Source: Escherichia coli (lineage in GTDB: Bacteria; Pseudomonadota; Gammaproteobacteria; Enterobacterales; Enterobacteriaceae). Taken from it: 64,000 bases of DNA. Numbering within the stretch: the stretch's first letter is position 1; each line of letters starts with the position of its first letter. The DNA lies in the NCBI RefSeq assembly GCF_001677475.2, contig NZ_CP015229.1. One strand, given 5' to 3'. The translations under genes and the position numbers were made by a program. Under the pieces are notes generated by a model. The model did no database searches, was not told where the DNA came from, and saw nothing but the letters and a program-made list of their open reading frames with translations. This document shows, piece by piece, positions 36,292 through 44,778 of the stretch.

Positions 36292-37140
36292 ATGAACGGC
36301 TTACTTCGTATCCGTCAGCGTTACCAGGGGCTTGCCCAAAGTGATAAAAAACTGGCGGATTATCTGCTGCTACAACCTGATACGGCGCGCCATTTAAGCT
36401 CTCAGCAACTGGCCAACGAAGCCGGAGTCAGTCAGTCCAGCGTCGTGAAGTTCGCGCAAAAACTCGGCTATAAAGGTTTCCCGGCGCTTAAGTTAGCGTT
36501 GAGTGAAGCGCTGGCAAGCCAGCCGGAATCTCCCTCCGTGCCCATTCATAACCAAATCCGCGGTGATGATCCGTTACGGCTGGTCGGCGAAAAACTGATT
36601 AAAGAAAATACTGCCGCTATGTACGCAACGCTAAACGTTAATAGTGAAGAGAAACTGCATGAATGCGTAACAATGTTGCGCTCTGCGCGGCGGATAATTC
36701 TGACCGGTATTGGCGCTTCGGGTCTGGTGGCGCAAAACTTTGCCTGGAAGCTGATGAAGATTGGCTTCAATGCTGCCGCAGTGCGCGATATGCATGCGCT
36801 ACTCGCTACAGTACAGGCGTCGTCCCCTGACGATCTGTTATTAGCCATTTCTTACACCGGTGTACGACGCGAGTTAAACCTGGCGGCAGATGAGATGCTG
36901 CGAGTGGGCGGAAAAGTGCTGGCGATTACCGGCTTTACTCCCAATGCCCTGCAACAGCGCGCTTCTCATTGCCTGTATACCATTGCCGAAGAACAAGCGA
37001 CAAACAGTGCTTCAATCTCTGCTTGTCACGCGCAGGGAATGTTAACGGATTTGCTGTTCATTGCGCTGATTCAGCAGGATCTGGAACTGGCACCAGAACG
37101 TATTCGTCATAGTGAAGCGCTGGTGAAAAAACTGGTCTGA
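36292..37140 (+). CDS. yfhH: RpiR/MurR-family transcriptional regulator (HTH plus SIS domain) YfhH
   Basis: ORF trimmed to MNGLLRIRQRY... (282 aa). Confidence 0.8.
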   Translation: MNGLLRIRQRYQGLAQSDKKLADYLLLQPDTARHLSSQQLANEAGVSQSSVVKFAQKLGYKGFPALKLALSEALASQPESPSVPIHNQIRGDDPLRLVGEKLIKENTAAMYATLNVNSEEKLHECVTMLRSARRIILTGIGASGLVAQNFAWKLMKIGFNAAAVRDMHALLATVQASSPDDLLLAISYTGVRRELNLAADEMLRVGGKVLAITGFTPNALQQRASHCLYTIAEEQATNSASISACHAQGMLTDLLFIALIQQDLELAPERIRHSEALVKKLV

Positions 37141-37159
37141 GTAAAGAATGCGCGTATAA

Positions 37160-37456
<297 letters not shown>

Positions 37457-37649
37457 TATTCTGCTCTGGAAGTAGAGTATTAATTATTTTACAGGAAAGC
37501 CTTAACGCCATTATATTTATTTAATTGATGACATTAGCATAATTATTCACAAAATGAATTTATATAATATCTGCCCAGACATTTATTTATAATTATTAAA
37601 GGCGCGCCTGGCTGGTTAACCTGACGCGCCTTAAGTACGTTTCCTTATG

Positions 37650-37730
37650 TTATAAGAACAGAAGGATCAGCTGTAAAACAGCAATGATGATTTTGATGAC
37701 CCGTTTAATAAGGTATCGGCAATCAGTCAT
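37650..37730 (-). CDS. shoB: Type I toxin ShoB (26-aa hydrophobic peptide)
   Basis: Hand translation of the minus strand: ATG ACT GAT TGC CGA TAC CTT ATT AAA CGG GTC ATC AAA ATC ATC ATT GCT GTT TTA CAG CTG ATC CTT CTG TTC TTA TAA = MTDCRYLIKRVIKIIIAVLQLILLFL*; below the ORF-track length cut-off. Confidence 0.75.
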   Translation of the reverse strand: MTDCRYLIKRVIKIIIAVLQLILLFL

Positions 37731-38052
37731 TCGTTTTTCCTTAAACAAGGAATGCAGCCGTTCAGATTAGCCCTTACATCTCCCCAAAACTGAACGTGCG
37801 AGTTATTGGAATCGAGTGCTGCACTCCACACCAGAGCTTTGACGACACCACTCGTTTCAATGGGGGAATTCAGTGGCATGGTGTAAAGCACAGCAAAATT
37901 GCCAATAACGAAACCGATTTTAATGTACTTATCAAAAAGCGGTCACGTTAATCTTTTCATCAATGTCGATTTCTTCGTAAAGGCTCGCGTTTTTTATGTC
38001 AGAGATTGCAAGTTGCTTGTACAGGTCAACTAAATTGATCCATAATCATTTC

Positions 38053-38128
38053 CGTTGGAATCGTGTGCTGCACAAAATTAAAGTTGTAAAGTGAAAACCC
38101 CCGTTCCTTACCAGTTCGGGGGTTTTAC
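38053..38128 (+). ncRNA. ohsC: Candidate OhsC antisense sRNA (antitoxin of shoB)
   Basis: Plus-strand TTGGAATCGTGTGCTGCAC (38055-38073) matches plus-strand 37806-37824 in the shoB 5' leader at 18 of 19 positions, so a plus-strand transcript would base-pair with the minus-strand shoB mRNA; CATAAT -10-like hexamer at 38041-38046; hairpin at 38094-38126. Boundaries inferred. Confidence 0.45.
38094..38126. terminator. Bidirectional terminator hairpin (acpS operon end and candidate ohsC end)
   Basis: AAAACCCCCG-loop-CGGGGGTTTT with A-tract and T-tract flanks. Confidence 0.6.
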
Positions 38129-38151
38129 TTTATAAAGAGAACGGTATTTTT

Positions 38152-38532
38152 TTAACTTTCAATAATTACCGTGGCACAAGCATAGTGGCGTTCATCTGCC
38201 AGCGTTACATGCATATTTACAACGCCGAGCTTTTCCGCCAGTTTTAATGCCTCACCCCATAGCCGTAGCCGTGGTTTGCCGAGCTCATCATTGAATACTT
38301 CAAATTGATTAAACGCCAGACCATTGCGGATCCCGGTGCCAAACGCTTTTGCCGCCGCTTCTTTCACAGCAAAACGCTTCGCCAGAAAACGCACCGGCTG
38401 GTGGTGCGTTTTCCAGATTGCCCATTCGTTATCGCTTAATACGCGGCGTGCCAGGCGTTCACCGGATCGGGCGATCACCGCTTCTATGCGAGCGATCTCC
38501 ACAATATCCGTACCTAAACCTAATATTGCCAT
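38152..38532 (-). CDS. acpS: Holo-[acyl-carrier-protein] synthase
   Basis: 126 aa, [19 protein letters not shown]... Confidence 0.93.
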
Positions 38533-39263
38533 TAGCCACGCGATTCCAGCATCAGACGCTTCATTTCTGCCACCGCATCTTTCAGTCCGGTCATCACTGC
38601 ACGACCAATAATGGCATGACCGATATTCAGTTCATGCATCTCAGGGATGGCAGCAATAGCTTTCACGTTGTGATAGGTCAGACCGTGACCAGCGTTAACT
38701 TTCAGACCGAGACTAGCGGCAAAGGTCGCGGCTTTGGCGATACGCGCCAGCTCTTGCGCCTGTTCGGCGTCAGTTTTGGCATCAGCATAGCAACCGGTGT
38801 GGATCTCGATAAACGGTGCGCCAACCTCTGCCGCAGCTTTGATCTGCTCTTCATCGGCGTCGATAAACAGAGAAACCTGGATCCCGGCCTCCGCCAGACG
38901 TTTACAGGCATCGCGCATTTTGTCACGCTGCCCTGCGACGTCCAGGCCGCCTTCGGTTGTTACTTCCTGACGCTTTTCCGGTACCAGACAGCAAAAATGT
39001 GGCTTCGTCTCAACGGCGATCGCCAGCATCTCTTCGGTCACCGCCATCTCCAGATTCATGCGGGTATCCAGCGTCTGCCGCAGGATACGCACGTCGCGGT
39101 CGGTAATGTGGCGGCGATCTTCACGTAAATGCACGGTAATGCCGTCCGCTCCCGCCTGCTCAGCAATAAACGCCGCCTGCACCGGATCCGGGTAAGCAGT
39201 ACCGCGTGCGTTACGCAGCGTTGCAATATGGTCAATGTTGACGCCTAACAGTAATTCAGCCAT
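38532..39263 (-). CDS. pdxJ: Pyridoxine 5'-phosphate synthase
   Basis: ORF trimmed to [21 protein letters not shown]... (243 aa). Confidence 0.93.

Positions 39264-42978: not shown

Positions 42979-44778
<1,800 letters not shown>

Follow-up and report, generated by a model that had tools for sequence, protein, structure and literature searches.

A second common allelic form of the shoB-ohsC type I toxin-antitoxin module in Escherichia coli

In the 64,000-nucleotide stretch of Escherichia coli DNA analysed here (the window), the ORF list places yfhL (ending at 37456, plus strand) and acpS (38152-38532, minus strand) on either side of a 695-bp gap (37457-38151). A reading made from the sequence alone had proposed that this gap conceals a type I toxin-antitoxin locus, shoB/ohsC, whose antisense RNA would recognize the leader of the toxin mRNA through a 19-nt repeat. 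Is this proposal correct, and how do the two RNAs match each other across the species? The gap locus is the known shoB-ohsC type I toxin-antitoxin system. The proposal is borne out by peptide identity, a match to the Rfam family RF02495, synteny and the promoter hexamers, and amounts to a correct rediscovery of a system that was already known; only the word “hidden” was overstated, given that the locus is present in RefSeq, in Rfam, in EcoCyc-style annotation and in published full-text papers. As toxin genes and antisense RNAs of this kind are often missed by ORF-based tracks, their recovery from raw sequence is a useful sanity check. Taken as a whole, the gap is almost certainly the E. coli shoB-ohsC module in the second of two common allelic forms, under the control of OhsC. 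The identity of every part, the complementarity, the co-variation across alleles and the predicted folds are established in the following.

Identity and setting of the locus

The toxin gene of the window (Table 1) begins with an ATG at 37730, ends with a stop codon at 37652-37650 and encodes a small hydrophobic toxin of 26 aa, MTDCRYLIKRVIKIIIAVLQLILLFL. The minus-strand peptide that the sequence-only reading had matched to the E. coli ShoB toxin is thus present at 37730-37650; it is identical to ShoB of K-12 (b4687) and corresponds to the RefSeq protein WP_000128776.1, which is named ShoB there. Because an NCBIfam HMM scan of the 26-aa peptide yielded zero family matches, the name ShoB is assigned by identity to the K-12 protein.

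Table 1. Features of the shoB-ohsC locus in the window, with mRNA positions counted from the predicted 5' end of the primary shoB transcript
Feature	Position	Strand	Basis
shoB CDS, 26 codons + TAA	37650..37730	-	ORF list, translation, identity to K-12 b4687, RefSeq
Predicted primary shoB mRNA, ~318 nt	37593..37910	-	Promoter, terminator hairpin, published ~320 nt (PMC5397157)
shoB promoter: -35 GTGACC 37946-37941, -10 TAAAAT 37922-37917	37917..37946	-	Promoter scan; PMC11264685 Table 2
5' arm of primary mRNA, nt 2-35	37876..37909	-	MFE fold; predicted to pair with nt 74-109, burying the OhsC site
OhsC target site, mRNA nt 87-105, window-type allele	37806..37824	-	Repeat, co-variation, cognate co-fold
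Anti-SD UUCCUU, mRNA nt 159-164	37747..37752	-	Hairpin partner of the SD
shoB Shine-Dalgarno (SD) AAGGAA, mRNA nt 169-174	37737..37742	-	Read from sequence
shoB intrinsic terminator hairpin, mRNA nt 279-312, then UUUAAUAA	37599..37632	-	Inverted repeat I2, fold
ohsC promoter: -35 TTGTAC 38017-38022, -10 CATAAT 38041-38046	38017..38046	+	Promoter scan; PMC11264685 Table 2
OhsC sRNA, ~80 nt	38054..38133	+	Rfam RF02495; K-12 b4608 coordinates transferred by alignment
OhsC 5' pairing segment GUUGGAAUCGUGUGCUGCAC, window-type allele	38054..38073	+	Repeat, energies, folds

In K-12 MG1655, shoB (b4687) and ohsC (b4608) are annotated between yfhL and acpS in the same relative positions and orientations, and the layout with divergent, non-overlapping genes between these neighbours is the same in MG1655 and in strain 2012C-4221. 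The 695-bp gap was matched in 5,425 of 5,426 complete E. coli genomes, on the chromosome in every case, and all records listed carry the RefSeq label “type I toxin-antitoxin system toxin ShoB” under the match. The window shares with the K-12 locus (ryfB/ryfC; RF02495) the ShoB peptide, the yfhL-acpS position, the divergent orientation, the -10 boxes, the SD, the OhsC terminator and the length and position of the 19-nt pairing. It differs in the -35 box of ohsC, which reads TTGTAA in K-12 and TTGTAC in the window, in one extra G in the OhsC spacer and, above all, in the pairing bases themselves, to which we return below.

The plus-strand sRNA of the original proposal is backed by an Rfam scan of 36500-39000, in which RF02495 (ohsC_RNA) matched 38054-38131 (+) over the full length of the model (1-77 of 77) with 95.4 bits (E=1.5e-15), far over the gathering score of 50 bits. 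The sRNA lies at the predicted place, but its size is ~80 nt (38054-38133), within the ~60-80 nt expected of OhsC, and not the ~75 nt given in that proposal. Two further Rfam matches of ~22 bits, Thr_leader and mir-5, fall far under the gathering score and are merely the OhsC terminator hairpin. The ohsC promoter, which had been deduced from the letters of the window, has hexamers equal to the published ones (PMC11264685 Table 2); among the 2,212 genomes surveyed in that work, TTGTAC is the 33% variant of the ohsC -35 box.

On the other strand, both ends of the shoB mRNA were estimated, to within a few nucleotides, on the basis of the promoter, whose hexamers are spaced GTGACC-18-TAAAAT, and the terminator. 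Of the minus-strand RNA of ~300 nt with a long leader that had been expected, the leader stands (the 5' UTR measures ~180 nt), and the length is refined to a predicted primary transcript of ~318 nt. This fits the published sizes (PMC5397157): shoB gives rise to one RNA of ~320 nt and another of ~280 nt that begins 41 nt further downstream, and only the shorter, processed RNA gives lacZ-fusion activity (PMC5397157, PMC5066626). The shoB SD is 100% conserved (PMC11264685) and, like the promoter hexamers, is spaced as expected. A simple terminator scan of the gap returned zero sites, since its rules do not cover the loops or stems of either terminator; folding and inverted repeats show both.

Overproduced ShoB is toxic in K-12, and OhsC represses ShoB synthesis (Fozo 2008, as cited in PMC3919570 and PMC5397157); excess shoB expression is further described, again with reference to Fozo 2008, as leading to a growth stop and membrane depolarization (PMC5397157). 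From this K-12 literature we carry over to the window the toxicity of ShoB, its repression by OhsC, the processing of the mRNA 5' end and the cleavage by RNase III; by the same analogy, the window-type allele would behave like the K-12 allele.

A predicted 19-nt interaction in two allele classes

The repeat on which the sequence-only reading had built its case was found where it had been placed: 37806-37824 in the leader (TTGGAATCGAGTGCTGCAC) and 38055-38073 in OhsC (TTGGAATCGTGTGCTGCAC) form a direct repeat with 18 matches in 19 positions. Shuffling the 695-bp gap 300 times with its dinucleotides preserved gave at most 17 matches in any 19-nt window and never 18 (0/300), so the repeat cannot be put down to chance. 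The logic that a direct repeat in the DNA makes a plus-strand sRNA complementary to a minus-strand leader was also right, and the co-variation in the population supports the pairing. The duplex of the window pairs at 18 of 19 positions with one central U·U and, in addition, a terminal G·U. For K-12, a 19-nt pairing of the OhsC 5' end with the shoB 5' UTR has been predicted (PMC3919570, citing Fozo 2008), and in vivo RNase III was found to cut where shoB and OhsC form their duplex (PMC6212723).

Duplex prediction on the two 19-nt segments, which had been put forward as a check, indicated strong cognate pairing of -34.2 kcal/mol for the window. This is ~7 kcal/mol weaker than the predicted K-12 duplex (-41.4 kcal/mol); swapped alleles are predicted to reach -20 to -25 kcal/mol. 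In co-folds with the mRNA starting at +42, OhsC nt 1-20 are predicted to occupy nt 87-106 of the cognate mRNA, with ensemble binding of -16.6 (window) and -21.5 kcal/mol (K-12), and swapped alleles yield -1.5 and -8.5 kcal/mol. Binding of OhsC to the full-length mRNA was poor in silico and, for the window allele, off the cognate site, which would fit the processed RNA being both the active and the targeted form. OhsC itself, with its pairing segment at nt 1-20 and its terminator hairpin at nt 33-80, has a predicted fold of -24.5 kcal/mol (z=-3.8) in which nt 1-9 are free and a small hairpin (nt 10-20) precedes the terminator hairpin; in this model, the block that varies between alleles would overlap the single-stranded OhsC toehold.

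The gap is ~10% diverged from K-12, and very unevenly so. Divergence is 37% in the leader pairing site and 35% in the OhsC pairing site, 20% in the inter-promoter region, 1.2% in the shoB CDS, 1.3% in what remains of the proximal 5' UTR and 0.8-3.4% in the neighbouring genes. Both pairing sites, the most diverged parts, are changed at the same positions. K-12 has TTGAGGGTGCATGCTGCAC in leader and OhsC alike, where the window has TTGGAATCGAGTGCTGCAC in the leader and TTGGAATCGTGTGCTGCAC in OhsC; in the core block, seven of eight bases are changed in both partners, K-12 reading AGGGTGCA and the window GAATCGAG (leader) and GAATCGTG (OhsC). A search for a templated origin of the window-type block found its 9- and 10-mers nowhere else in the 64-kb window in either orientation, except for a chance 10-mer at 44649. 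Nor is the window-type block the reverse complement of the K-12 block.

We compared the two sites in 81 metagenomic contigs, four Escherichia species representatives and several complete genomes. Both sites were readable in 87 loci and of full length in 86, and all of the latter (86/86) pair at no fewer than 18 of 19 positions when G·U is counted. The K-12 type (35 loci) pairs at 19/19. A K-12 leader combined with OhsC A11G (18 loci, one of which also has A at OhsC +1) gives one G·U wobble, and a single locus with leader GGATGCG and OhsC GGGTGCG (L007) has G-C at that position and G·U at another. The window type (32 loci) has the identical central U·U throughout. A low-coverage contig (L016) accounts for one more locus, with a 1-nt deletion in the leader site. 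Mixed allele combinations were absent among the 87 readable loci. The GGATGCG leader also occurs in E. albertii.

For complete genomes, each query of 80 nt was built from two 40-nt pieces, one around either site; given the 28-nt word of megablast, each half matches its cognate allele only. Window-type halves were present in 1,696 of the 5,426 complete E. coli genomes and both halves in 1,670, which puts the window-type allele at ~31%. K-12-type halves were present in 3,706 genomes and both in 3,407, a shortfall largely explained by OhsC sub-variants that break the 28-nt word. In LF82, O157:H7 and ATCC 25922, which have the majority window-type form, the pairing blocks are exactly those of the window and differences are confined to the OhsC spacer. 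A K-12 leader together with a window-type OhsC was found in one of the 5,426 genomes (strain Z1323CEC0015), and the opposite combination, window-type leader with K-12-type OhsC, in none of them. With only 249 bp between the two sites, few chimeras are to be expected from linkage alone. The one natural chimera (L095) keeps shoB intact, and full cognate pairing may therefore not be strictly essential.

A 2024 survey of 2,212 genomes described the pairing region as highly variable and left open whether the pairing suffices (PMC11264685). According to our comparison, the region falls into two discrete, internally complementary allele classes, which answers the question of the survey at the level of sequence. 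Comparative evidence of this kind argues strongly for the 19-nt interaction as the selected function. The co-varying block and the fixed U·U can be called new only to the extent that the literature accessible to us leaves the point open.

Could the U·U mismatch instead mark a decaying remnant, in which control by OhsC has been lost or the pair has become non-functional in the window strain? That pairing reaches 18/19 and not 19/19, and that the duplex is predicted to be less stable than that of K-12 by ~7 kcal/mol, would point in this direction. However, the same mismatch is fixed in 32 of 32 window-type loci examined, and the allele persists in about 31% of complete genomes, its ORF, promoters, SD and terminators all being intact. 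The ShoB sequence is unchanged, and cognate binding at the right site is still predicted, at the -16.6 kcal/mol given above. We regard decay as very unlikely and prefer to see in the window a common allelic form that OhsC controls.

Predicted folds of the shoB mRNA and proposed routes to repression

The primary shoB mRNA (318 nt) has a predicted MFE of -109.9 kcal/mol (z=-5.7), and the K-12 transcript is predicted to have the same architecture (z=-5.0). In a long 5' hairpin, nt 2-14 pair with nt 98-109 and nt 16-35 with nt 74-94, so that the OhsC site at nt 87-105 is buried; the 5' arm of this hairpin lies mostly within the ~41 nt reported as removed by processing (PMC5066626, PMC5397157). Over 29 distinct haplotypes, 97% of the cells of the primary-mRNA fold pair, and most pairs are invariant. 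Covariation comes from related sequences and from two pairs only, 9:102 (GC in 10 haplotypes, GU in 10, AU in nine) and 11:101 (GC in 19, AU in 10). At its base, the 5' hairpin thus varies in step with the allelic form of the target block. Terminator helix 12 shows one-sided GC/GU/AU changes between alleles. In the SD hairpin (helix 6), five of six pairs never vary and 99.4% of the cells are paired across the same 29 haplotypes.

Once the 41 nt are removed, the target is predicted to be unpaired with a mean probability of 0.32, up from 0.17, and the site is still mostly paired in the +42 fold. The SD/anti-SD hairpin is predicted in both the +1 and the +42 mRNA with a probability of at least 0.96. 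A buried target and a buried ribosome-binding site (RBS) in the predicted primary mRNA would fit the published 5' processing and would place shoB-ohsC with the tisB, dinQ and zorO class of divergent type I systems, whose primary transcripts are inert. In the +42 form, opening of the SD is not predicted (hairpin P = 0.99), and folding alone consequently does not account for the activation of translation.

We propose the following course of events. Transcription of shoB leftwards from the sigma-70 promoter at 37946-37917 would give a primary mRNA of ~318 nt with a 180-nt leader, whose first ~35 nt would pair with nt 74-109 and hide the antitoxin site at nt 87-105; with the SD held in a separate conserved hairpin, this primary transcript would be translationally inert. 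Cutting ~41 nt from its 5' end, as reported for K-12, would expose the site and yield the translatable form. Rightward transcription of ohsC from 38054 would produce an RNA of ~80 nt with a strong terminator hairpin at its end, and the first 19-20 nt of OhsC would base-pair with the leader at the site freed by processing, 76 nt upstream of the AUG. This pairing would repress ShoB synthesis indirectly, most likely through occlusion of a standby region or through refolding of the anti-SD/SD, and the resulting OhsC-mRNA duplex would become a substrate of RNase III. ShoB in excess would insert into the inner membrane and depolarize it.

It is the way in which OhsC pairing blocks translation, by standby occlusion or by dinQ-like refolding, that we infer here; the predicted folds are compatible with both models. 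For shoB, earlier work has put forward three mechanisms: occlusion of a standby site, an element similar to Sok/mok, and a four-element switch of the dinQ kind (PMC4147584, PMC5397157, PMC5066626).

With standby loading, as in tisB/IstR-1, the SD would stay closed, ribosomes would load at nt 87-105 of the processed mRNA, and OhsC would block this loading. A nearly invariant SD/anti-SD hairpin, predicted with P=0.96-0.99 in both mRNA forms, an OhsC site 76 nt upstream of the AUG and the gain in unpaired probability of that site on processing (0.17 to 0.32) all speak for such a route, which has been raised for shoB by analogy (PMC5397157, PMC4147584); the predicted +42 fold, in which the site is largely paired, speaks against it. 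tisB/istR-1 is like shoB-ohsC in its divergent non-overlapping genes and in the ~20-nt pairing of the sRNA 5' end far upstream of a sequestered RBS, and its primary transcript is likewise inert and activated by 5' processing (PMC7708055, PMC4147584). It differs in having unrelated sequences and an unrelated peptide and in its LexA control; moreover, the standby site and pseudoknot of tisB are demonstrated, whereas the element of shoB is putative. On balance we take standby occlusion to be quite possible, if somewhat short of probable.

In the alternative modelled on dinQ/agrB, nt 84-93 of the processed mRNA (GGAGUGCAGC) would pair with nt 153-162 (GCUGCAUUCC), the segment that holds the anti-SD, and thereby free the SD; OhsC would reverse this refolding. 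The leader of dinQ has four elements, of which element 1 pairs with element 2, the antitoxin site, and processing at ~+42/+44 lets elements 2 and 3 pair, opening the SD; a comparable complementary set exists in shoB, in which four dinQ-like elements have been proposed (PMC5066626). The duplex 84-93:153-162 would comprise 10 bp, including one G·U, between segments that do not vary within E. coli. A fold constrained to contain this duplex lies only 3.3 kcal/mol above the MFE, and the E. albertii change U159C improves the duplex (to G-C) while breaking pair 159:174 of the SD hairpin. A GCUGCA-like core complementary to nt 84-94 is, in addition, common to OhsC, the 5' arm and nt 153-162. Against these points, the equilibrium probability of the duplex in the +42 form is only 0.002, and double-sided covariation is absent, the segments being invariant. 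The switch of dinQ is backed by SHAPE and mutants, whereas that of shoB is a prediction with low equilibrium occupancy. Refolding may be the route, with much the same probability as standby occlusion.

A third route would follow hok/mok/Sok, with OhsC blocking a leader ORF of 54 codons and hence the coupled translation of ShoB. Such a frame exists at 37891-37727: it has a GTG at 37891 and an in-frame ATG at 37879, contains the OhsC site, and closes with a TGA sharing bases with the ATG of shoB (ATGA). The overlap is real, the frame is open in most haplotypes, and “another translational element, like Sok” has been named as a possibility (PMC4147584). The hok/mok/Sok systems of plasmid R1 and of chromosomal copies also resemble shoB in their small membrane toxin and in an indirect antisense block upstream of the toxin RBS, but Sok and its target overlap in cis, and Sok works by way of the mok leader ORF. 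Unlike mok, the shoB frame lacks a Shine-Dalgarno sequence before either GTG 37891 or ATG 37879, and both starts lie inside the ~41 nt whose removal yields the sole translatable mRNA (PMC5066626). Beyond the pairing block, five synonymous changes stand against nine non-synonymous ones, which indicates no constraint at the protein level, and a few contigs have indels that break the frame. With no SD, no synonymous bias and start codons that are lost in the active mRNA, we reject a mok-like leader ORF as extremely improbable, and retain standby occlusion and refolding as the routes by which OhsC would act.

Possible specificity between alleles

The zorO/orzO system of O157:H7 is divergent like shoB-ohsC and pairs via the 18-nt 5' end of its sRNA. 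An OrzO-OhsC chimera, that is an OhsC body with a foreign 5' seed, represses (PMC3919570), and the paralogous zor/orz pairs are told apart by few seed bases. There, a single genome carries the specificity variants as tandem paralogues, whereas those of shoB-ohsC are alleles of one locus across strains. We tentatively suggest, at less than even confidence, that E. coli keeps two non-cross-reacting “lock-and-key” alleles of shoB-ohsC, in which an 8-nt block of the OhsC toehold has been replaced together with the target block of the mRNA, and with which the base of the 5' hairpin of the mRNA co-varies.

The locus as such is textbook material for E. coli, and the added value lies in resolving its pairing region into two allele classes. 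The species provides natural reagents for tests of OhsC repression in its two alleles, in the intermediate with a G·U pair and in the one chimera that occurs naturally, and the allelic pairing block suggests a simple cross-repression experiment. If the lock-and-key proposal is true, OhsC of one class would fail to silence shoB of the other class. Recombinants could then be penalized, which may explain the single chimera in 5,426 genomes, and the locus would represent a natural specificity switch in a trans-acting sRNA-target pair.

Allelic divergence in the control elements

Between the shoB and ohsC promoters, which face away from each other, the sequence differs from K-12 at about 20% of positions; divergence in the flanking genes is far lower. 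Two CpxR sites, CB1 and CB2, have been placed between these promoters, and CB2 is reported to be highly variable (PMC11264685). It may be, therefore, that the allele classes are not regulated alike. In the shoB terminator, the alleles differ in both arms, at positions that pair with each other: 283:308, for instance, is UG, CG or UA, and 287:304 is UA or UG. The stem is retained despite 14% divergence of its 57-bp segment from K-12.

Features of the shoB/ohsC gap in the window
Feature	Position	Strand	Remark
shoB terminator	37599–37632		compared with K-12
Leader ORF, 54 codons	37727–37891	minus	TGA overlaps shoB ATG (ATGA)
Region between divergent shoB and ohsC promoters	37911–38053		
OhsC terminator hairpin	38086–38135	both	near-palindromic

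The OhsC terminator hairpin starts 19 nt beyond the stop codon of acpS, which lies on the opposite strand, and Rfam has a weak reverse-strand ohsC match (25 bits) at this place. The hairpin is probably a bidirectional terminator, common to ohsC and the era-recO-pdxJ-acpS transcription unit; an acpS transcript reading through it would be antisense to OhsC.

Coding content of the gap

The OhsC site falls inside the leader ORF. This ORF is not preceded by a Shine–Dalgarno sequence, no coding constraint was found in it, and its start codons are lost through the reported 5′ processing. The ShoB peptide of the window is identical to that of K-12. In the commonest window-type genomes, those of B2 strains (LF82, for example), ShoB carries I22L (WP_000128777.1; 258–338 in the LF82 locus, L093); the same applies to metagenome haplotypes of the L005 type. 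The exact gap haplotype of the window was found in none of the 5,426 complete genomes, the best match reaching 99.1%.

Natural disruptions and a natural chimera

In strain CP52E (NZ_CP075731.1, locus 753–1699), an IS1 element has taken the place of shoB and of the greater part of the gap, so that just the ohsC end survives (antitoxin-only); NZ_CP082835.1 and NZ_CP145662.1 also carry IS1 insertions within the gap. In strain FCI29 (L094, NZ_CM172720.1), the OhsC target in the leader contains a 1-base insertion (TTGGAATCGAGCTGCTGCAC), which is either a real variant disrupting the pairing or an assembly error. A single one of the 5,426 complete genomes, E. coli strain Z1323CEC0015 (L095, NZ_CP148423.1, locus 358–860), is a natural chimera: its shoB leader site is of the K-12 type and its OhsC of the window type. 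The duplex of this chimera is predicted to reach only about −21 kcal/mol, and its shoB is intact. Nature here provides a test of the need for cognate pairing.
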